Shown here piece after piece: positions 32,925-46,160 of a stretch of DNA of 64,000 nucleotides (positions are counted from its first letter, which is position 1; every line of letters starts with the position of its first letter). Under the pieces are notes generated by a model that saw only the letters and a list, made by a program, of their open reading frames with translations, was not told the origin of the DNA and searched no databases. Location of the stretch: the NCBI GenBank assembly GCA_965209035.1, contig OZ242372.1, positions 512,001 to 576,000 of the forward strand, given 5' to 3'. Both the position numbers and the translations under genes were made by a program. This DNA is from Gammaproteobacteria bacterium (GTDB lineage Bacteria > Pseudomonadota > Gammaproteobacteria > CBDBNL01 > JAAOII01).

Positions 32925-33041
32925 CTATCCTTGTCTTTGCTTTAATCTCGGCTGACGCTTACAGATCACCCGCAACACTCTTTTGCGACGCACTATTTTA
33001 CAGTCGCGATTAATTTTTTTGATACTTGAACGAACTTTCAT
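32925..33041 (-). CDS. rpmJ: 50S ribosomal protein L36 (below ORF-track cutoff)
   Basis: Hand translation [38 protein letters not shown], between secY and rpsM. Confidence 0.95.
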
Positions 33042-33042
33042 A

Positions 33043-34371
33043 TTATCTGGCTACTCTGCCTCTGGTTCTGTTCAATCCCGCCTTTTTTAGAACCGAACTA
33101 TATTGACTTGACATTAAATGAGATTGAATCTGAGAAATAAAATCCATAACCACCACCACAACGATTAGGATAGATGTGCCCGCAAAGAAAAAGGGAATAT
33201 TCATACCGACAAGGATCATTTGTGGCAAAAGAGAAACGGCCGTAATATACAAACTGCCAAACACCGTCAAACGGGTTAAAACATTGTCAATATAATCCGC
33301 CGTATGAGTGCCGGGACGAATACCCGGGATCAGGGCGCCGGATCTCTGCAAGTTGTTTGCAACATCACGCGGATTGAATACCAATGCCGTATAAAAGAAA
33401 CAAAAGAAGATCACCGCTGCGGCAAAAATAAAATTGTAAAGCGGTTGGCCGGGTGCCAACAAAAGCGAGATGTCTTGCAACCAACCCAACCCGTCTCCTC
33501 CCTGGCCCACCCATTGCCCCAGAGTGGCGGGAAACAAAAGAAGACTGGAAGCAAAAATCGGAGGAATGACACCCGCCACATTCACCTTAAGCGGTAAATG
33601 AGAATACTGGCGCGCATAGATCCCGCCCTGGGTCATACGATTTGCATAGTTTATCGTAATGCGTCTCTGCCCTCTTTCAATAAAGATGACAAACATCACA
33701 GTCAAAAAGACAAAAATCACAAACCCCAACCCGATCAGAATACTAATATCACCCTGACGCATCAGGTCCGCCGATTGCCCCACCAACGAAGGAATTCCGG
33801 ACACAATACTCGCGAAAATAAGCAAGGAGATGCCGTTACCGATCCCTCTTTCATTAATCTGTTCTCCCAGCCACATTAAAAACACCGAACCCGCAACAAA
33901 ACTGATGGTAGATATCAGGTAAAAAGAAACATTCGGGTCAATGGCGATCTCCTGATTTGCCAAGGCCGCCGCAATGCCAAACCCCTGAACCGTGGAAATG
34001 CCCACCGTGAGATAACGCGTATACTGATTGATTTTTCGCCTCCCGCTCTCCCCTTCTTTGCGCAGTTGCTCCAAAGTCGGCACAACCGCCGACATCAACT
34101 GCATAATAATGGCAGCGGAAATATAGGGCATAATACCCAGGGCAAAAATACTCATCCGTTCAAGTGCCCCGCCCGAGAACACATTGAACAAACTCAGAAT
34201 CGTTCCCTGATTATAGTTAAAAATCTCCGCCAACCGAATCGGGTTAATCCCCGGCAACGGAATGTGAGCCCCCATGCGATAGACGACCAGAACTCCGAAA
34301 ACGAACAACAGGCGACGGAACAATTCGCCCATTGACGATTGCATCGGCTGATTTCTTTTATTTGTCGCCAT
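33043..34371 (-). CDS. secY: Preprotein translocase SecY
   Basis: [37 protein letters not shown]. Confidence 0.97.
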
Positions 34372-35086
34372 CTTCTTTCTTGGAATTCATGATGTCAGTA
34401 GTGTCGGTAGCATCGGGTTTCACCTCTGCTTCCGGGGATTCGGATACTTTCGGGGCTGCCCCTTCTGTCTTAACATCCGCGGCAACATCTTCTCCGGTCG
34501 TCTTTTTCTTTGCCACAACTTCTGTCTTACCCGCCGGCTTGGCGGCCTGCTCAGTTGCCGCGGTTTTCTTTGCGGGAGATGCGGCATCCGCAGAGTGCTC
34601 TTTCCTTTTCTTTTTTTCCTTTACATCCGCAGCCGTACCGGTAAGAAGGATCTTGCCCTTTTGGGAAACGATCGCCGCACTCGCACCTTTGGTAACCTTG
34701 ATGTTCACATCGTCCAACACCACACTTTTGGTAAGTTCCCCCGAAAGAAAAATTCTGACACGCTTGATGTTCTTGCGCACGATACCGGCATCCTTAAGTG
34801 CTTGCAGATTCACGGTATCTTTTTCCAACAGATTCAACTCGCCCAGACGCACCGAAGCATCGGTGGACGCTGTCGGCGAAGTAAATCCGAATTTCGGCAA
34901 CCTTCTTTGCAACGGCATTTGACCGCCTTCAAACCCTTTCATAGAAGTGGACACCCCGGAACGGCTTTTTTGTCCCTTGTGTCCTCTGCCGCAGGTCTTG
35001 CCCTTACCGCTGCCAATCCCTCTGCCAACACGCATTCTCTTCTTGCGGGAGCCTTCGGCGGGTACTATCGTATTCAAAAATAACAT
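34358..35086 (-). CDS. rplO: 50S ribosomal protein L15 with ~95-aa C-terminal extension
   Basis: [33 protein letters not shown]. Confidence 0.95.
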
Positions 35087-35268
35087 TACTCGCAGACCTT
35101 CACCATATAATTCACCTTCGCGATCATCCCGCGCACCGACGGTGTATCCTCCACTTCCGTTTCTTGCCCTATCTTACTTAGACCCAAACCATAAACACAC
35201 TTCTTGTGTTTTGGCAAGCGACCTATCAGACTTTTCACCAACTTAACCTTAACGACAGGTTTCTTCAT
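35086..35268 (-). CDS. rpmD: 50S ribosomal protein L30
   Basis: KSLIGR, LGL.KI, RGMI.KV. Confidence 0.95.
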
Positions 35269-35288
35269 TATTTATTTATCCCTTTTAC

Positions 35289-35813
35289 TTATTGCTGCTT
35301 ATCCGCCTGCGGGGGTTTTTCCCGATGCTTTCTGCCGTGGCGTTTGCGATAAACATCCCGGGGCGAAAGCATCTCCCGCAATCCCTTGAATGTCGCATGA
35401 ACAATGTTAACCGGATTGGTTGAACCATAACTCTTTGCCAGAACATTACGAACTCCCGCCAATTCAAGAACAGCCCGCATGGCACCGCCGGCAATCAAAC
35501 CGGTTCCCTCTGCGGCAGGTTGCATATAAACCCGGGACGCGCCGTGTCTCGCTTTGATGGGATACTGCAGTGTGGCACCTTTGGGCGCTATCTTCACTTC
35601 TATCATATTGCGTCTGGCCGCGTCCAAAGACTTCTGCATCGCAACCGGCACCTCGCGCGCCTTGCCACGCCCAAACCCCACCTTGCCGTTGCCGTCGCCG
35701 ACTACAGTGAGCGCACTAAATCGCAGGATACGACCGCCCTTCACCACCTTGGTGACGCGACGAATATCTACCTGTTTTTCTTGCAGAGCCGAAGACTCTT
35801 CAAATGATGCCAT
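35289..35813 (-). CDS. rpsE: 30S ribosomal protein S5
   Basis: [23 protein letters not shown]. Confidence 0.97.
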
Positions 35814-35943
35814 GATTTTCTTTACTTTACTTTTCTTTGTTAATTAATGTTAATGGTGAGCTGCCGAAATAGGGCAAAATGAACACATTTCGTTTTCTAT
35901 TATAGGGTACACAAGAATCCAAATTCCCAATAAGTCTTATCTG

Positions 35944-36297
35944 TTAAAACTTCAATCCGTTTTCGCGGGCAGATTCGGCAAGTGCCTTAACACAACCGTG
36001 ATACTTAAAACCCGAACGGTCAAATCCCACCGTCTCTATCTTTTTCTTGATCGTTCGCACCGCTATCAAACTGCCCACTATTTTGGCGCCTTCCAGACCT
36101 TTATGCGTTTTTTTGGCACGCAGCTCTTTTTCCACGGTAGAAGCGGATGCCAAAATCTTGCCGCCATCCGCGGTGATCACCTGAGCATAAATGTGCTTAC
36201 CGGAGCGAAACACACTCAAACGCGGCAACTTGCATTCACGCAACAACATCCGGCCGCGCTTCGCCCGTCTGAGTCGGTTATTTTTTTTGATACTCAT
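35944..36297 (-). CDS. rplR: 50S ribosomal protein L18
   Basis: [23 protein letters not shown]. Confidence 0.96.
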
Positions 36298-36302
36298 CGG
36301 AA

Positions 36303-36842
36303 TTATTTCTTCTTCTTGGCTTCTTTCAAAATAATCTCTTCGTCCGCATATCGGACACCCTTGCCTTTGTAAGGATCCGGCCGTCTCAGGCTGCGTATTT
36401 CCGCCGCAATCTGCCCCACCCGTTGCTTATCGATACCGGACACTGTGAGTTTGGTCTGATCCTCCGGTTTTGCCTGCACATCCGCGGGCATCTTGTATAT
36501 GATAGGGTTTGAATAACCCAGCGATAATTTAAGGTCTTTCCCTTGCTGTTCCACCCGATAACCGACCCCGCGCAGTTCCAAATTCTTGGAAAAGCCATCG
36601 GTCACCCCGACAAACATATTTTGCGTTAATCTGTGCAGTGTTCCCGCCATGGCACGCGACTGTTTGTTCTCGCTATCCGTGGGAACGAAAAACAGAGCAT
36701 CTTCTTCCTGCCGACATGTCACCAACGGATGCATTCTTAAAGATGCCTCGCCTTTGGATCCTTTTACACGAAGTTGATTTTCTTTCAAACTCCATTCCAC
36801 GGACTGCGGAATCTTTACGGGAATTTTAGCAAATCTTGTCAT
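36303..36842 (-). CDS. rplF: 50S ribosomal protein L6
   Basis: [16 protein letters not shown]. Confidence 0.96.
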
Positions 36843-36851
36843 TTGGAATAT

Positions 36852-37247
36852 TTAGAATACGGAGCACAAAAGTTCGCCGCCGACTTTCAGTTTACGCGCT
36901 TCTTGACCGGTGATCACTCCGCCGGAAGTGGACAGAATACATACCCCAAGCCCCGAACGAATCTGCGGGATTTCGTCAAACTTGCAATAGGAGCGCAATC
37001 CGGGACGACTAATGCGTTTAATTTCGGCGATGACCGGCTTATCTTTGTAATACTTCAGCCCGATCTTCAATACCGGAAAGCGTTCATCACGCATCACCTC
37101 ATAACTCTTGATATAGCCCTCGTCTTGTAAAATTTTTGCCACGCTCTCCTTAAGACCGGAGGACGGCATTTCCACCCAAGATTTACGCACCATCAGAGAA
37201 TTTCTGATGCGTGTCAGCATATCGCTCAAAGGATCTTGCATACTCAT
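36852..37247 (-). CDS. rpsH: 30S ribosomal protein S8
   Basis: MSMQDP..DMLTRIRN, SRPGLR.Y, GGE; start moved to 37247. Confidence 0.96.
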   Translation of the reverse strand: MSMQDPLSDMLTRIRNSLMVRKSWVEMPSSGLKESVAKILQDEGYIKSYEVMRDERFPVLKIGLKYYKDKPVIAEIKRISRPGLRSYCKFDEIPQIRSGLGVCILSTSGGVITGQEARKLKVGGELLCSVF

Positions 37248-37251
37248 TTTT

Positions 37252-37557
37252 CTACCAACTTGCTTTTTTGATACCGGGTATCTCGCCGCGCATTGCCAGC
37301 TCACGCAACTTGTTGCGTCCCAGACCAAACTTTCTATAAACTCCCCGCGGTCGCCCGGTGAGATAACAACGCAGACGCAACCGCACCTTGCTGGAATTGC
37401 GCGGTAATTGTTGCAGTTTCAACTGCGCGTCCCAACGCTCCTTCTCATCAAGTTTCGGATCTATCACAAGTGCCTTAAGTTCCTTGCGCTTGGCGGCATA
37501 AAATTCCACCAACCGTTGTCTCTTGTGTTCGCGCGCGATAACAGATTTCTTTGCCAT
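37252..37557 (-). CDS. rpsN: 30S ribosomal protein S14 (long form)
   Basis: MAKKS, LPRNSS, TGRPRG..RKFGL.R, KASW. Confidence 0.96.
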
Positions 37558-37568
37558 AATTTGTAATT

Positions 37569-38108
37569 TTAAGAACGAAACGGAAATCCCAAAGATTTCA
37601 ATAACATTAAACTTTCCTCGTCATTGCCTCCCGTAGTCGTCACCGTAATATCCAGCCCCCGTAACTTGTCTATTTTCTCATAATTGATTTCCGGGAAAAC
37701 AATCTGCTCCGTAATGCCCATGGAAAAATCTCCGTGACCATTAAAAGCCTTCGGATTAAGCCCGCGAAAGTCACGCACCCGCGGCAAATCAATATAAACC
37801 AACTTATCCAAAAAGTGCCACATCCGCTTTTTACGCAGGGTCACCTTGCAACCAATCGGCCAACCCGCCCGAATCTTAAACCCGGCGATAGACTTACGGG
37901 CTTTGGTCACCGCCGGCTTCTGCCCGCTGATCAAACGCAAGTCATCCATGGCCTTATCAAGGACGGACTTATCCGCAACCGCCTCGCCAACTCCCATGTT
38001 CAAGACCACCTTTTCTACGCGTGGCACGCGCATCGGGCTCTTAAAAGAATAATGCTTCATCATCTGCGGCACAGATTCCTTTTTATATTTCTCCAGTAAA
38101 AGCGACAT
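37569..38108 (-). CDS. rplE: 50S ribosomal protein L5
   Basis: [24 protein letters not shown]. Confidence 0.97.
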
Positions 38109-38113
38109 CTTTG

Positions 38114-39058
38114 TTATGATACCTTAATTTTATGTAACTCGTTTTTAATTCTATCTTTGGTGACGGCGACCGCATCCTTGTTCTCGTCTATGAGAATGCA
38201 TTTGCGCTGATGACTGAGGGCCGCGATGCCCGCGGTGCCACTGCCGGCAAAAAAATCCAACACCTTATCACCCGGGTTGGAATGAATCCGAACAATTCTG
38301 TCCAAAATCGCAAGCGGTTTCTGTGTCGGATAGTCCGTCCGCTCCTTGCCGTTGGTTGGCACAATGGTTTGCCACCAAACATCCGTGGGTGTCTTACCCT
38401 GTTCGGCTTTTTTCTCACCCACCAGACCGGGTGCCATGTAAGGGATACGGTCCATCGCCGCATAATTGAAAGTATACTTCTCTTTGTCTTTCGCATACCA
38501 AAGAATATTGTCGTGCTTGGTCGACCATTTTGTCCGGGATCTCGCGCCAAAATCATACACCCAGATGATTTCGTTAACAAAATTATCTCTGCCAAAAATA
38601 CGATCCAGCAGAACCTTGCAGTAATGCGCCTCGCGATAATCAATATGCAAAAAGAAACTGCCGTCATCCGCCAACAGACGATGTGCCTGTTGCAAGCGCG
38701 GCTCCATAAATGCAATGAAATCGTCAAACTTATCTCCGTAAGAGAGAGCGGACAAATGTTCTGTCTTGTACGACTTACCGCCAAAACCAAGGCGCTTGCC
38801 GTTCGGGTCCGCCTCTGTCTTAATTCTCTTGTATGTTTGCGCTTTTTGCGTATTAAACGGCGGGTCTATGTAAATCAGGTTTGCCACACCGTCCGGCAGC
38901 AGCGGCAATATGTCCAGGTTATCACCGCAGAACAACTCACAATCCGGATGAGAAACCTCAACCCGAAATTTGTCTGTGTTGGTCTCGGGCATGTCCGCAC
39001 GGAACGAAACCTTGCGAGCCGCCCCGTTTTGGTCGGGCAGGTTGGTCATCTCGGTCAT
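38114..39058 (-). CDS. Orphan N6-adenine/N4-cytosine DNA methyltransferase (beta class)
   Basis: Motif [11 protein letters not shown] precedes YPTQKP and motif [11 protein letters not shown]; start moved to ATG 39058, 19 nt after the rplX stop. Confidence 0.9.
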
Positions 39059-39077
39059 TATTTCGGCTGTTTGCAAC

Positions 39078-39386
39078 TTACAACTCCTTATTGCTTGATT
39101 TAAAAAACCTGACCTTCTTGCCCTTGTCATCTTTTTTATAAGAAATCTTTTCCACCTTATTGGTCTCCGGATTCACCGGCACCACGTTGGATATATGCAA
39201 TGACAGATGTTTGGTGATAATTCCGCCGGGCTTGTTCGCATTGGGATTCCCGCGCTGATGTTTCTTGTAAGCATTCAGACTGCGAAGCATCACCCTGTCG
39301 CCAATAATTTTTTCAACCACATCGGTCTTCTTCTTATCCTTGCCGGTAAGAATCATGACCCTGTCATTGCGTTTAATTCTTCTCAT
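39078..39386 (-). CDS. rplX: 50S ribosomal protein L24
   Basis: IK.ND.V.IL.GKDK, KKH, GGII, HISNV. Confidence 0.93.
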   Translation of the reverse strand: MRRIKRNDRVMILTGKDKKKTDVVEKIIGDRVMLRSLNAYKKHQRGNPNANKPGGIITKHLSLHISNVVPVNPETNKVEKISYKKDDKGKKVRFFKSSNKEL

Positions 39387-39400
39387 CTTGCTATAAACTT

Positions 39401-39769
39401 CTAAAGAACTTCCGGTGCCAGTGAAACGATACGCATAAAATTGCTGACCCTCAGTTCGCGCGTCACCGGACCAAAGATACGCGTACCAATCGGGGCACGC
39501 TGCTGATTAAGCAGAACGCAAGCATTATCGTCAAAACTAATCAAAGCCCCGTCCGAGCGTCGCACTCCCTTCTTGGTTCTGACGACCACCGCAAAAAAGA
39601 CCTCTCCTTTCTTAACGCGTCCGCGCGGAATGGCATCTTTAACAGTCACCTTAATAACATCGCCGACGGAAGCATACCTTCTTTTGGAACCGCCCAGCAC
39701 CTTGATGCAGAGAACTCTGCGGGCACCGCTGTTGTCCGCCACATTGATCATTGTCTCGGTTTGAATCAT
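39401..39769 (-). CDS. rplN: 50S ribosomal protein L14
   Basis: [32 protein letters not shown]. Confidence 0.97.
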
Positions 39770-39771
39770 CG

Positions 39772-40023
39772 TTACTTTTCGTTAATATGAACAATCTCAA
39801 AAAACTTTGTTTTGGCAATCGGCCTGGTCTCGCCGATGCTCACTCGATCGCCCGTCTTGGCTTTGTTTTCCGGGTCATGAGCATGAATCTTTGTGGAGCG
39901 TTTAATGTACTTCCCATAAAGAGGATGCTTAACCTTTCGGGTAATTGAAACAGTCACGGTCTTATCCATCTTGTCACTCACCACTACGCCCGTAAGGACT
40001 CTTCTATTCGGTTTGTCTGTCAT
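39772..40023 (-). CDS. rpsQ: 30S ribosomal protein S17
   Basis: [24 protein letters not shown]. Confidence 0.96.
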
Positions 40024-40034
40024 TATTTACTTGT

Positions 40035-40298
40035 CTATTTATTCGTATTCCCTTTTTCCTTGGCGGATATCTTTTCGTTCCCCTTTCGCAGATTCTCCGT
40101 CATCAAGGTTTTAATGCGGGCAATCTCACGCCGATTCACCTTCAAAAGATGAGTCTGCGACAGTCTCCCGGTCTTGTGTTGCATCCTGTAACGAAACAAT
40201 TCCTCGCACCGTTCCAATAAAAGGTTGGGCAGTTCTTCCGGTTGCTTTTGACGGAAGTCGCGTATCACCTTGCGGGTAATTTTCTTTTCCTTAGCCAT
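40035..40298 (-). CDS. rpmC: 50S ribosomal protein L29
   Basis: ELF..RMQ..TG.L.QTH.LK..RR.IARIKT; start moved to 40298. Confidence 0.9.
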
Positions 40299-40710
40299 AA
40301 AAATCGCTTCTCTTAACAAATACGGTAGATACCGGCAGTTTACTTGCCGCCAATCGCATCGCTTCCCGTGCCAGTGGCTCCGGCACGCCGTCCATCTCAT
40401 AAAGCATGGTCCCGGGTTTCACCGGGGCCACCCAGTATTCCACGGCACCCTTGCCCTTTCCTTGACGCACCTCAAGCGGTTTTTGCGTAATCGGCTTGTC
40501 CGGAAAAATCCGAATCCAAATCTGGCCGCCGCGCTTGACATGTCTGGTCATTGCACGCCGCGCCGCTTCTATCTGCCGGGAAGTAATTCGCTGATGAGCG
40601 GTTGCACGCAATCCGTATTCACCAAAGGATACTTGATTACCGCGACAAGCCAGGCCTCTGTTGCGTCCCTTCTGCTGCTTACGATACTTGGTTTGTTTTG
40701 GCTGTCTCAT
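40291..40710 (-). CDS. rplP: 50S ribosomal protein L16
   Basis: [24 protein letters not shown]. Confidence 0.97.
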
Positions 40711-41489
40711 CTCCCTCTTGGCGGTTTAGTGCCGCCGCCCGGTCCTCGTTCTCTTGGCGGTTTGCCACCGCCGCCCGGTCCTCGTTTTAATTTTTTCTTG
40801 CCCGACCGACGCAGTCCCCGCTTCTGTGCGGCATCCTCATCTTCGGCATAACTCTTGGCAAAATCCATAATCTCGGAACGAAAAATCCAAACCTTCACTC
40901 CCAGAATCCCGTATGTTGTCTTGGCTTCAATCATCGCATAATCAATATCCGCACGCAGGGTATGCAGCGGTACACGCCCCTCTTTGTAACTTTCCGAGCG
41001 CGCAATATCCGCCCCCGCCAAACGTCCGCTCACTGCCACCTTTATTCCCAAAGCACCCGCCTCCATAGTGGAACTTACCGCCCGCTTCATCGCCCGCCGA
41101 AACATCACCCGTTTTTCCAATTGGCGCGCTATGCCTTCCGCCACCAACCGACTTGCCAACTCCGGCTTATGAATTTCTTGAATATCTATGTAAACATCCA
41201 TACCCAGACAACGCGAAGCAATTTTGTTGAGGGCATCAATCTCCGCTCCTTTTTTACCTATGACGATACCGGGTGAGGCGGTGCGAATGATCACCTGCGC
41301 ATTGTTTGCCATTCTTTCAATACGAATCTCGCTCACAGACGCTCTTTCAAATCTTGCCATCAACTCGCCCCGCAGCTTAATATCCGCCAGAAGATTGCTG
41401 GTGTACTTGCTTTTTTCCGCATACCAAATAGCCGAATGCCGTTTGGTAATTCCCAAACGCATGCCAATCGGATGAACTTTCTGACCCAT
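40707..41489 (-). CDS. rpsC: 30S ribosomal protein S3
   Basis: [31 protein letters not shown]. Confidence 0.97.
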
Positions 41490-41494
41490 AATGA

Positions 41495-41827
41495 TTAGCC
41501 GCTCAATTCAATTGTAATGTGACTGGATCGTTTGATGATCCTGTCCGCCCGTCCTCGCGCGCGCGGCTTCATTCGCTTCAAAACACCCGCCTTATCCACC
41601 GATATCTTGCTCAACACAAAATTTTCCGGGTTCTCGCCAAGATTATTTTCCAAGTTGGCAAGAGCGGACTTAAGCGTTTTATCCAAGTAGGTCGCCGCCT
41701 TACTGTTGTTAAACATCAAAATGTTCAACGCCTGAGACACCTTTTTGCCGCGAATTAATTTGGCAAGAGGTCTCACCTTTGCGGGCGATATCCGAGCACT
41801 CTTATAAACAGATCGTATTGAAGCCAT
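41495..41827 (-). CDS. rplV: 50S ribosomal protein L22
   Basis: [25 protein letters not shown]. Confidence 0.96.
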
Positions 41828-41829
41828 GA

Positions 41830-42105
41830 TCACTTCTGTGTTTTTCTGTCACCGGAATGTCCCTTAAAAGTGCGAGTAGGTGCAAACTCGCCCAACTTGT
41901 GTCCGACCATGTTTTCGTTAATAATGACAGGTATGTGTGCCCGCCCGTTATGAACGGCAATCGTCAAACCCACCATGTCCGGGAAAACAGTGGTTCGGCG
42001 CGACCAGGTCTTAATTGGCTTCTTATCTTTGGTTTCCACCGCCTTTTGAATCTTATTTAAGAGAGCACCGTCAATGAAAGGAGGTTTTTTAAGAGAACGC
42101 GACAT
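41830..42105 (-). CDS. rpsS: 30S ribosomal protein S19
   Basis: [24 protein letters not shown]. Confidence 0.97.
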
Positions 42106-42110
42106 AATGA

Positions 42111-42950
42111 TTATCTCTTCTTCCCTTGCTGTCTCTTACGCACAATGAAAACATCCGTATTTTTTCTGTGACGCGTTTTATATCCTTTGGTCTTTACTCC
42201 CCAAGGGGTTACCGGATGGCGGCCACCCGATGTCTTGCCTTCGCCGCCGCCGTGAGGATGATCCACAGGATTCATCGCAACACCGCGCACCGTCGGTCTA
42301 ATTCCGCGGTGACGACTTGCCCCCGCTTTGCCAAGGGCTATCAGCCCGTGTTCTTCATTGCCAACCTCACCGACCGTCGCACGACAATCCAACAAAATTT
42401 TTCGCATCTCACCGGAGCGCAGCCTCATAGTGGCATAATTGCCTTCCTTGGCAACCAATTGCACCGAAGTACCCGCACTGCGCGCCAACTGGGCCCCCTT
42501 CTGCGGCTTGAGTTCCACACAATGCATCACAGTCCCCAAAGGCACCGAACGAAGCGGCATGGCGTTACCGGGTTTGATCGGGACATCCTTCTTACCCGAA
42601 AGAATTGAAGAATCCACATCAACCTTTTGCGGGGCAAGAATATAGCGTCTCTCTCCGTCCGCATACTTAATCAGAGCGATGTGGGCACTGCGATTGGGAT
42701 CATATTCCAGTCTCTCCACTATGCCGGGAACTCCGTCCTTATCGCGCTTAAAGTCTATGATCCTGTATCTGCGTTTTGCACCGCCCCCCTGGTGTCGCAC
42801 CGTGATTCTCCCCTGATTATTGCGACCAGACTTCGCATTCAAAGGTGCGGTCAAAGGTGCATGGGGCTTGCCTTTGAATAAAAACGAATAGTCCGCCTTA
42901 ATTCTGTGGCGATGGCCGGGCGATGTGGGTTTTAACTTAATAGTTGGCAT
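42111..42950 (-). CDS. rplB: 50S ribosomal protein L2
   Basis: [29 protein letters not shown]. Confidence 0.97.
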
Positions 42951-42961
42951 CTTGTATCCTC

Positions 42962-43276
42962 TTATGCCCCTTCCACAAAGAAATCTATGCGTTCCCCTTT
43001 TGCCAAGGAGACATAAGCCTTCTTATAACCGGAGCGCACCCCCGCGCGACCGGTGCGAATGTTACGCACCTTTTCCGGCTTGAGATTCACAATTCGCACC
43101 GCGGTAACCTTCACATCAAACAGTTTCTGCACCGTATCCTTAACCATTTGCTTGGTCGCTTGCGGCAACACACGAAAAACATACTGCCCGTACTTGCTAT
43201 TGAGATCATTGCTCTTCTCGGACACATGGGGAGCAAGAATCACCTTATACATAAATTCTTCTTTTGTCGTGGTCAT
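42962..43276 (-). CDS. rplW: 50S ribosomal protein L23
   Basis: [10 protein letters not shown]...ATK, KKAYV.L. Confidence 0.95.
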
Positions 43277-43881
43277 ACCAATCTCTTCTCCAATTCTTTG
43301 CAGGCATCTACGGTAAAAATGAGTTTATTGGCACCCAGCAAAAATTCCGGGGTGATGCGGGTCGATTCCGTCACATGCACATTGGGCAAATTGCGGGAAG
43401 CAAGATGCAGTTCTTCGCTTATTTTGCTCACCACTATGGAAGAGTGCAAGGCATCATACTGACCGAGAATTTTAATCAAAGTTTTTGTTTTCTTGTCGGC
43501 GACATTGATATCACTGACCACTCGCACTCTGTCACCGCGCACCAGATCCGAAAGAATGCAACACATGGCTCCTTTATACATCTTGCGATTAACTCGCTGT
43601 TTGTAAGAACGCGGAACAGCCGCAAAAGCAACTCCGCCACCGCGCCGAATGGGGTCCTTGCCCGCACCCACACGAGCGCGACCTGTTCCCTTTTGACGCC
43701 AAAGTTTCTTTGTGCTGCCGACAACCTGACCGCGTGTCTTCTGCGCCTTACTTCCTTGACGCTTGCCGGCAAAAGAAGCCACAAGAACTTGATGCGCAAG
43801 AGTCGGGTTGCTGTCTCTTTTAAACACCTTATCGTCAAGACTTACCTTTTTCTTGTCGCCGTCCAATAATTCCACTTGCAT
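43273..43881 (-). CDS. rplD: 50S ribosomal protein L4
   Basis: RQKGTGRAR.G, GGGVAF, RNLP.V; start moved to 43881. Confidence 0.95.
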   Translation of the reverse strand: MQVELLDGDKKKVSLDDKVFKRDSNPTLAHQVLVASFAGKRQGSKAQKTRGQVVGSTKKLWRQKGTGRARVGAGKDPIRRGGGVAFAAVPRSYKQRVNRKMYKGAMCCILSDLVRGDRVRVVSDINVADKKTKTLIKILGQYDALHSSIVVSKISEELHLASRNLPNVHVTESTRITPEFLLGANKLIFTVDACKELEKRLV

Positions 43882-43906
43882 TGTTGTTATCCCCTGTTGT
43901 TTTCTG

Positions 43907-44953
43907 TTATTTCTTGTTTTTATCTTTACCGGCATCCTGCTCATCGGATTCTTTCGGCTTCTCCGCCTGTTGTTGCTCTTCACTCGTTTCGGCATTACTG
44001 TCGCTCTTTGCCGCCGCATCAGGTTTTGCCTCCGTTTCAGGCTTCGCTTCCGGCTTCTTGCCATCCGTCATTGCCGCATCCTCGGTCTTTGCCTCCGTAT
44101 CGGGTTTTGCTTCCGCCTCGGGCTTCCCGTCATCTGCCGCATCCTCGGTCTTTGCCGCCGTATCGGGTTTTGCTTCCGCCTCGGGCTTCCCGTCATCTGC
44201 CGTTGCCGCATCCTCGGTCTTTGCCGCAGCATCGGCCGCTTCCTGTTCTTTAAGTTGTCGTTGCTCTTCTCTCTCGCGCATCAATTTTTCCGTTTTTTCT
44301 CGTTCCGGCGGGCTCTCCTTAACGGAAGGACGCACAACCACCCAGCCACCGCGCGAACCCGGAACCGCTCCTTTAATTAAAATAAGACGATTTTCTTCGT
44401 CTATGTCCGCCACTTCCAACCGCATGGTTGTAACTCGTTCCGCCCCGTAATGTCCCGCCATCTTTTTGCCCTTAAAAACTCTGCCGGGGAACTGACACTG
44501 GCCGGTGGATCCCAGATGCCGGTGGGACAAAGAATTGCCGTGTGTGGCATCCTGCATTGCAAAGTTCCACCGCTTAACAGCACCGGCAAAGCCACGCCCT
44601 TTGGATATACCCGTCAAATCCACTTTCTGCCCTGTCACAAAATGCCCCACCGTGACCTCCGTACCCAAGGCAACATCCGCATCCGCACGAATACGAAACT
44701 CCGCCAACTTGTGTCCAAAAGGAACGCCCGCCTTCTTGTAATGACCGCCCAGAGCCTTGCTTGTTCTTTGTGCCTTTCGGGTGCCTGCCGCCAACTGCAC
44801 CGCATCATAGCCGTCTGTTTTCTTCGTCTTCAACTGACAAACACGATTGGTATCCGCATAGATCACCGTAACGGGAACAGATGCCCCTTGTTCGTTAAAA
44901 ATACGAGACATGCCGAGTTTAACCCCCAATAATCCGACAGAACTGTCCATCAT
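43907..44953 (-). CDS. rplC: 50S ribosomal protein L3 with ~135-aa acidic repeat extension
   Basis: G.KLGMS, DGY.AVQ, KGRGFAG..KRWNF, KGAVPG; tail with [20 protein letters not shown] repeats. Confidence 0.95.
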
Positions 44954-45843
44954 TTGTCCGCTTTACCCGGTTTGGCTTCGTCGCCGACAGCTTTTCCCGG
45001 CTTTTTCGCGGCCGGCTTCTTGTCTGCCACTGCAGCAGGTGGCTTCTCACTTACCGCAGCATCGGATGACTTCTCGTCTGCCACCGCATCGGATGGCTTC
45101 TTACCCGCCTCGGCATCGGCTGGCTTCTTGCCTGCCTCGGCATCGGATGGCTTCTTGCCTGCCTCGGCATCGGATGACTTCTTGTCTGCCACTGCAGCAG
45201 GTGGCTTCTCACTTACCGCAGCATCGGATGGCTTCTTGCCGGCCACCGCAGCATCAGATGGCTTCTTGTCTGCCACTGCAGCAGGTGGCTTCTCACTTAC
45301 CGCAGCATCGGATGGCTTCTTGTCTGCCACCGCATCGGATAGCTTCTCGCCAACCGCAGCATCAGATGGCTTCTTGCCGGCTGCCGTCTCCGCCGTTGTT
45401 TTCTTTATTCTTGTTATCTTTGCCGATCCGGTCAATGCGTCGTTCTTCCGTCGAATCGCTTGTTTGGTTTTTACTTTCTTTGCCGCCTTCTTAACACTCG
45501 CCGTTCTGCGGGCAATCGTCTCAGGATCCGGAAAACTGATGTCCACCTCAACGCCCGCCGCCAAATCCAATTCCTTAAGTGCTTCCAGCGTCTTATCCGT
45601 CGGCGAAACGATTTCCAGCATCCGCTTATAGGTTCTAATTTCGTATTGATCCCGGGCATCCTTATCCACATGCGAAGAAATAAGAAGAGTAAAACGCTCC
45701 TTACGAACAGGCAAAGGAATAGGTCCTCTGATCTCGGCTTGGGTTCTTTTTGCCGCCCCCACGATTTCCCGGGCGGAGCTATCCAACAACCTATGATCAA
45801 AGGCTTTCAAGTTAATGCGTATTGTTTGCGAATTTTCCGGCAT
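44950..45843 (-). CDS. rpsJ: 30S ribosomal protein S10 with ~190-aa repeat extension
   Basis: [32 protein letters not shown]; tail of 11-aa KKPSDAAVA-type repeats. Confidence 0.95.
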
Positions 45844-46160
45844 CAATAATAATTATTCCTATCTAATTTTTGTGTTTTATTCAAAACTTAATCACTTATT
45901 TACTCAACTTATAAAATATTCAAAAAATCTAAAAAATCAAAATACAATCCAACCCAACCCTAATAACGGAAATCCGGGGAGTCAAAAAGACATCCTTCAT
46001 CACTTTATTTAACTTTGAAATCAAAGTAAACAAAGTAAAAAAAATCTCTACGGATAACTTGTTCTCTTACCCATAGAACCATCACAACCAGCCTTCAAAA
46101 AAGTAAAGGGCTGTCTATTTGTCTATTTATTGTATAGCTAAATCCGCGATTACGCCTGTT

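Follow-up and report, generated by a model that had tools for sequence, protein, structure and literature searches.

How does a gene for a DNA methyltransferase come to lie between the genes of ribosomal proteins L24 and L5? The row rplN-rplX-rplE is among the most stable bacterial gene orders. In contig OZ242372.1 of a Gammaproteobacteria bacterium (assembly GCA_965209035.1) the row is interrupted by a methylase gene, and the locus raises the question of whether the interruption is real, which enzyme is encoded, and why the gene has stayed at this position. The stretch of DNA analyzed, called the window throughout, measures 64,000 nt and corresponds to positions 512,001–576,000 of the forward strand of the contig. 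The host genome is a metagenome-type assembly made of 2 contigs, which measures 2.24 Mb and is 92.7% complete.

Organization of the locus

The order of the genes on the minus strand, established from the ORF list and Pfam matches, is rplN, rplX, methylase, rplE, rpsN (Table 1), and ribosomal-protein genes extend for more than 4 kb on either side of the methylase. Gene order is identical to that of the E. coli spc operon except for the insert. A preliminary description of this DNA had reported an intact beta-class amino-methyltransferase (DPPF...FAGSG), co-oriented with rplX and rplE and placed between them; both the coordinates and the PF01555 match agree with it. The spacers are also those reported, as ATG 39058 lies 19 nt past the rplX stop, and the methylase ends 5 nt before rplE. 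Restriction genes, IS ends and repeats had been described as missing from the surroundings, and this holds. No restriction gene was found near the methylase, both flanks being made of ribosomal-protein genes, and the search for direct or inverted repeats or IS ends flanking the insert returned short, chance-like matches only. Local alignments in search of a target-site duplication, or of an rplX-derived 3' end in the methylase, scored no better than shuffled sequences (fraction of shuffles reaching the observed score, 0.10–0.99).

Table 1. Coordinates, in the window, of the methylase insert and of the spc genes and signals around it.
Feature	Position	Strand	Basis
rplN (L14), spc operon gene 1	39401..39769	-	PF00238, E 1.3e-53
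rplX (L24), 102 aa, TAA stop 39078-39080	39078..39386	-	PF17136, E 1e-18
AAGGAG Shine-Dalgarno-like site within the last rplX codons	39084..39089	-	junction sequences, duplex energy
Solitary beta-class amino DNA methyltransferase, 320 aa from TTG	38114..39076	-	PF01555, E 2.1e-49
Methylase N-terminal tail, variable, probably disordered, ~36 residues	38969..39076	-	pLDDT, strain comparison
Methylase motif IV, DPPF (catalytic)	38855..38866	-	sequence
Methylase motif I, FAGSG (SAM binding), C-terminal to motif IV	38237..38251	-	sequence
5-nt spacer, methylase stop (TAA 38114-38116) to rplE ATG	38109..38113	-	sequence
rplE (L5), weak SD-like site of its own	37569..38108	-	PF00281 and PF00673
rpsN (S14), next spc gene	37252..37557	-	ORF list, tblastn vs relatives

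Junctions of the insert and a second strain

Both junctions are covered, with no difference, by Logan contigs from three runs of one sample. One contig of 25.8 kb spans the entire stretch concerned; others cover positions 37732–38761, 37988–39500 and 38732–39138. The sample is possibly the source of the assembly itself, so that the three runs do not count as independent support. None of the sequencing runs listed as containing the stretch is an RNA run. In the independent sample X4, analyzed as raw reads (~12% of the run), 12 reads of 90–99% likeness were found, some inside the methylase and none across a junction.

A second strain is represented by a contig of 407 nt over positions 38732–39138, which includes 61 nt of rplX and carries 36 differences. 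The 27 differences listed are exactly the substitutions of P0001, a protein 88% identical to the methylase, and the sole near homologue that the protein database contains; scans of genome and metagenome contigs for the methylase returned nothing above 66% identity. Since the contig reproduces the changes of P0001, a strain diverged by ~9% shares the rplX-methylase junction. Another contig, of 438 nt and depth 2, carries a 5' end of rplE 93% identical to that of the host (8 differences in 121 nt, positions 37988–38108), preceded by sequences that do not resemble the methylase. Its source may be a relative lacking the insert, or one in which the 3' end of the methylase is diverged; some relatives in the sample may thus be free of the insert.

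A chimeric metagenome assembly could have joined the methylase into the operon. The metagenome-type assembly, in 2 contigs, and the presence in the same sample of related methylases of other organisms, on contigs with GC-rich loose ends, speak for such an artefact. Against it stand the Logan assemblies of the three runs, which cover both junctions and include the 25.8-kb contig, the identical rplX-methylase junction of the diverged strain, the uniform composition across the junctions, and the start given by the gene caller to P0001, a TTG right after rplX. Misassembly at the junctions, foreseen as a weak point in the preliminary description, is contradicted by the first two of these observations. 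The artefact reading is largely refuted already, and deserves almost no credence.

Identity of the enzyme

The product matches PF01555 (N6_N4_Mtase) with 168.9 bits, the cut-off being 26.7, and its residues 60–301 align to positions 2–220 of the 221 of the profile. The PADLOC model PDLC03300 (MTase_II) is matched with 422.8 bits (E 1.5e-127). Motif IV precedes motif I, which is the order of the beta class. Residues D71, P72, P73 and F74 (numbered from the TTG start) are invariant across 36 aligned homologues, as are F276, A277, G278 and G280 of motif I, located at residues 276–280. By these sequence features the ORF is a beta-class amino DNA methyltransferase of type II-like kind, and the enzyme is probably active.

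The AlphaFold model, obtained with 36 sequences, has a mean pLDDT of 78, residues 1–29 being below 50. Foldseek assigned a probability of 1.00 to the matches with M.RsrI, CcrM, M.BceJIV, M.MboIIA and M.PvuII. Best matches were M.RsrI, CcrM and M.BceJIV (E ~1e-17 to 1e-18), and N4-cytosine enzymes followed at ~1e-14. By sequence, too, no solved relative is closer than M.RsrI (E 1.5e-26), and the best NCBIfam matches are adenine-specific DNA methylases, all under cut-off. As N6-adenine enzymes rank above N4-cytosine enzymes both in sequence and in fold, which is a hint only, the predicted target base is probably N6-adenine.

Known systems resemble the host gene in part. M.RsrI, the N6-adenine methylase of a type II R-M system of Rhodobacter sphaeroides (PDB 1eg2/1nw8), has motif IV before motif I and a similar length, and its fold is the best match to the methylase model (E 2e-18). 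It is accompanied by a cognate endonuclease and features DPPY, whereas the host gene is solitary and features DPPF; identity is 26–29%. The host gene, like orphans of the CcrM/Dam type, has no restriction partner, and may share with them the retention of orthologues across the genera of one family. CcrM is the second-best fold match, yet the host gene is no CcrM equivalog (NF050803, 82.5 bits vs 830). CcrM and Dam are not known from within ribosomal operons. The best NCBIfam match is the E. coli YhdJ type (NF008572 / PRK11524), labelled as an adenine-specific DNA methyltransferase, but the score is 101.7 bits and the cut-off 292. Lineage-specific solitary methylases are described as common in passages of PMC12707154 and PMC4752239.

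The preliminary description had also considered an enzyme acting on RNA. A target in rRNA or in a ribosomal protein would explain the position in the operon, and the ribosomal neighbors, as the weak matches to RsmD, HemK/PrmC and MTS models, are in line with it. These matches are confined to the SAM loop (residues ~251–313), and both RsmD (TIGR00095, 36.3 bits vs 117.5) and PrmC (TIGR03534, 17.1 bits vs 199.1), matched at residues ~256–307, are far below their cut-offs, whereas DNA methylases match over the whole length and the structural comparison ranks DNA N6-adenine methylases first. At 8 of 151 loci a methylase of the same family has a type II restriction enzyme as its partner, and neither the orthologues nor the homologues, at 160 loci, ever adjoin ribosomal or other translation genes. 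An RNA or ribosomal target is therefore very unlikely.

A solitary member of a widespread family

The family is large, as at least 8000 proteins were found at E 1e-20 or better, most of the top matches being 59–67% identical. Its loci reside in Alphaproteobacteria, Myxococcota, Dehalococcoidia/SAR202, Planctomycetota and other groups, many of them in MAGs. Neighbors could be read in 151 loci and were sorted into 153 clusters, the largest of which has 10 members; those that could be identified are mostly metabolic genes. A type II restriction enzyme (PADLOC PDLC03515, E 1.2e-47) lies directly downstream of the methylase in 8 of the 151 loci, so that members of the family are sometimes true R-M methylases, and mostly solitary. 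These 8 loci are mostly from Dehalococcoidia, and the enzyme measures 213 aa (e.g. L057:4806-5447). It has no match in Pfam, NCBIfam or PDB. Used as a query, it was absent from the host genome (92.7% complete) and from two genomes of sister genera, G001 and G003, and gave a weak match (E 6e-6) in a third, G002. On this gene content, the host gene is a solitary methylase without a restriction partner, and appears not to belong to a type II R-M system. In 10 of the 151 loci a co-oriented gene of 373 aa is found ~48 nt downstream of the methylase (e.g. L141:1187-2308). It has no Pfam, NCBIfam or PADLOC match, and may encode an unrecognised partner of the methylase.

PF01555 is matched 43 times in the host genome, with 31 or more of the matches in intact ORFs, and several large Mod-plus-Res-like pairs occur among them. 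The methylase genes other than the insert are in many cases AT-rich relative to the genome. Clusters or pairs are found on contig C1, for example, at 1039–1055, 1277–1282, 1440–1444 and 1551–1556 kb. An enrichment of R-M genes in sponge microbiomes has been published (excerpts of PMC5099237).

Rarity of the position

The conservation of the rplX-rplE adjacency, described beforehand as extreme, is borne out by the synteny of related genomes. The two genes adjoin in 11 of the 11 relatives in which rplE was matched by tblastn; a further relative, 62% complete, gave no rplE match and is outside the 11. The same arrangement is present in every one of another 40 genomes of the class, chosen as the first entries among the L5_C matches listed; in these, 14–104 nt separate the end of the L24 match from the start of L5. 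The adjacency is thus intact in all 51 other genomes of the class examined. Genes for L14, L24, L5 or S14 were found within 3–4 kb of the closest homologues of the methylase in none of 160 loci, and searches of PMC open-access and bioRxiv texts brought up no description of a DNA methyltransferase located in the spc operon. Judged from these neighborhoods, the position is rare and the enzyme ordinary, and the insert is known to date from a single uncultured genus.

Having persisted for no less than the time since the two strains diverged, the insert shows what the operon tolerates: a co-oriented ORF, without a terminator and with almost no spacer, which re-uses the ribosome-binding site of the downstream gene. 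Two co-oriented hydrophobic ORFs, of 241 and 143 aa, reside between rplE and rpsN in G005, a genome of the same order (L026:326-1492), indicating that the spc operon tolerates cargo.

Start codon and expression with the operon

Three in-frame starts are available to the methylase: TTG 39076 (320 aa), ATG 39058 (314 aa) and ATG 39049 (311 aa). The deposited protein (P0121) starts at the last and measures 311 aa. TTG 39076 is located 1 nt past the rplX stop, and is the only one preceded by an SD-like site (AAGGAG, 6-nt spacing), with a duplex energy of -8.8 kcal/mol; energies before the two ATGs are -0.9 and -1.8 kcal/mol. All energies were computed with the canonical anti-SD, which is assumed, as the canonical pattern of the 16S 3' tail is absent from the assembly. 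The gene caller used the equivalent TTG for the protein of the variant strain, P0001, which begins with MQAAEI. TTG 39076 is the likelier true start.

In the sister genera G002, G003 and G004 the rplX stop overlaps or abuts the rplE ATG (TAATG in G002 and G004, TTGATG in G003), and AAGGA(A/G) is found in the last rplX codons, 5–8 nt before the rplE ATG (-5.7 to -8.7 kcal/mol). The equivalent site precedes the methylase TTG in the host, where rplE has a weak SD-like site (AAGGU, 12 nt from the ATG, -3.9 kcal/mol). The other genes of the host operon feature no SD-like site at all, so translational coupling is probably the rule in this operon.

One promoter-like site was found at the insert (4.2 expected from shuffled sequences), and four terminator-like sites (4.1 expected). 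The methylase has the attributes by which genes are assigned to the spc transcription unit, namely co-orientation, short spacers, and lack of internal terminators or promoters. Because the spacers measure 1–19 nt upstream and 5 nt downstream, and promoter-like and terminator-like sites are not in excess over shuffles, it is reasonable to assume that the methylase is expressed together with the spc operon, and that its synthesis would be coupled to growth. Codon adaptation was also considered as a sign of high expression. The CAI of the methylase is 0.707, at the 89th percentile, but the same value is reached by 4 of 30 other methylase genes, and the index is not discriminating.

The position raises the question of ribosomal feedback. 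In E. coli, protein S8 exerts feedback at rplE, and the preliminary description placed its site at the rplX-rplE junction. This is imprecise, since nearly all of the E. coli site is coding sequence of rplE, whose start it overlaps, according to PMC3616713, where the S8-interacting RNA is also reported as narrowly distributed. Such a site could survive an insert placed before the ATG. No E. coli-type hairpin is detectable in the host: an alignment of the host and 7 relatives (8 sequences) revealed no conserved pair for an S8-type hairpin over the rplE start, and an Rfam scan of positions 33000–46000 identified no family, the sole match being a chance snoRNA (E 0.99).

History of the gene

Copies of the methylase, 56–58% identical (E 1e-103 to 1e-119), reside at other loci in the sister genera G001, G002 and G003; none was found in G004, a genome 72% complete. 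In G002 and G003 the copy lies beside a TctC-type gene, and is followed in G002 by a defence-type AAA ATPase; in G001 it lies beside inositol-type genes. No methylase remnants were detected in the host at the TctC and inositol-type sites, which are the equivalents of the G001 and G002 loci.

A rapid maximum-likelihood tree of 51 rows pairs the methylase with P0001 (SH-aLRT 99), and joins the two to the copies of the three sister genera (SH-aLRT 98), on long branches (0.43–1.02). This family clade suggests that the gene has long been resident in the family and was relocated later. Identity to copies in other phyla reaches 67%, above that to the sister-genus copies, and together with the long branches makes long-branch attraction possible. 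The GC content of the methylase (0.490, GC3 0.578) equals that of the genome (0.492) and of the neighboring genes. Taken together, the data suggest that the gene has long been resident in this gammaproteobacterial family, at a different locus in each genus. The notion of a domesticated methylase, put forward in the preliminary description, is accordingly plausible, given the one clade formed with the orthologues of three sister genomes, the mostly silent changes of the core and the host-like GC. A phage origin was considered and rejected: of 631 matching phage records none reaches 60% identity, and the ten that are listed have 33–36%.

Selection on the two parts of the protein

The variant strain differs from the host unequally along the gene. 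In counts from which 9 of the 36 contig differences, not listed, are left aside, 12 of the changed codons in the stretch 31–99 are synonymous and 4 non-synonymous, and in codons 1–30 the changes are 1 synonymous and 9 non-synonymous. For rplE, a variant contig features 9 synonymous and 2 non-synonymous changed codons. At the protein level, residues differing from P0001 are 6 of 233 in the core and 11 of 36 in the N-terminal region. The methylase core thus looks constrained. The shared junction, the mostly silent core and the host GC argue that the insertion is real and not recent, and that it is probably kept by selection.

P0001 carries a 1-nt frameshift, located after HSNPG, which removes or replaces motif I. 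No indel is listed in four runs, where three reads or one contig are required for an entry. Either an error of assembly or genuine decay may account for the frameshift; in the second case, the sister strain can do without the gene.

Origin and role of the insert

The reading that we favor, with some confidence, is that of a solitary DNA methylase conserved in the lineage, probably specific for N6-adenine, which has been relocated into the spc operon and is expressed with it. A type II-like enzyme of the beta class, from a widespread and highly conserved family, would have resided for long in the host family, and in the host genus its gene would have been placed exactly between the rplX stop and the rplE start. 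Having no promoter or terminator of its own, the methylase would have taken over the Shine-Dalgarno site of rplE. As it also ends 5 nt before the next gene, it is presumably transcribed with the ribosomal-protein genes, and translation is probably coupled: ribosomes coming from rplX would translate the methylase, and synthesis of L5 would follow termination of the methylase 5 nt upstream. Production of the enzyme would then keep pace with growth, and the enzyme would methylate its DNA motif genome-wide.

Of the competing explanations, recent horizontal transfer from a different phylum living in the habitat accounts for the top identities outside the genus (62–67%), found in Planctomycetota, Alphaproteobacteria, Myxococcota and Dehalococcoidia, many of them MAGs, and for sister-genus copies being only 56–58% identical. 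It is hard to reconcile with the tree, which groups the gene with the family copies (SH-aLRT 98), with GC and GC3 equal to those of the host, with a junction common to strains ~9% apart, and with phage copies which do not exceed 36% identity among the ten listed, and we hold it to be improbable. A tolerated passenger is a more serious rival, because of the frameshifted copy of the sister strain. The gene would have landed by chance at one of a small number of sites where a co-oriented, terminator-free ORF spares the operon, and would bring no benefit and decay slowly, persisting since only a precise deletion is viable. With so many methylase genes in the genome (43 PF01555 matches, 31 or more in intact ORFs), raw material for insertions would be frequent, and the operon of G005, with two unrelated ORFs between rplE and rpsN, shows the same tolerance. 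The loss of the SAM-binding motif in P0001 and the free evolution of the N-terminal tail (9 non-synonymous changed codons vs 1 synonymous) fit the expected decay, but the frameshift may be an assembly error, and all catalytic motifs of the host gene are intact. At a DNA divergence of ~9% the core accumulated 12 synonymous vs 4 non-synonymous changed codons and 6 changes in 233 residues, and three sister genomes retain orthologues at other loci. Passive persistence is for these reasons doubtful, though it has to be kept in mind.

A further hypothesis assigns a defensive role to the gene. Locked in its position, the solitary copy might work as a 'vaccine', shielding the chromosome, through methylation of the motif, from incoming restriction systems with the cognate specificity. 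The family circulates across many phyla of the habitat, sometimes with a restriction enzyme, and such protection would be growth-proportional, as the seat between coupled essential genes would make expression track growth, and hence DNA synthesis. Once the ribosome-binding site of rplE had been captured, L5 synthesis would hinge on ribosomes traversing the methylase, and the gene would not be lost by imprecise deletion. We consider this role quite unlikely.

For the relocated, lineage-conserved methylase that we favor, the consequences hinge on activity. If the enzyme is active, the locus would tie the capacity for DNA methylation firmly to ribosome synthesis in a natural setting, and would serve to test whether position in an essential operon can protect a gene from loss.

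Ribosomal proteins of the window

Several ribosomal proteins encoded in the window feature long low-complexity extensions. L3 (43907–44953) measures 348 aa and contains repeats (13 protein letters, not shown), L4 (43273–44064) measures 263 aa and has a basic N-terminal extension, S3 (40707–41489) measures 260 aa and ends with a tail (14 protein letters, not shown), and L15 (34358–35086) measures 242 aa.
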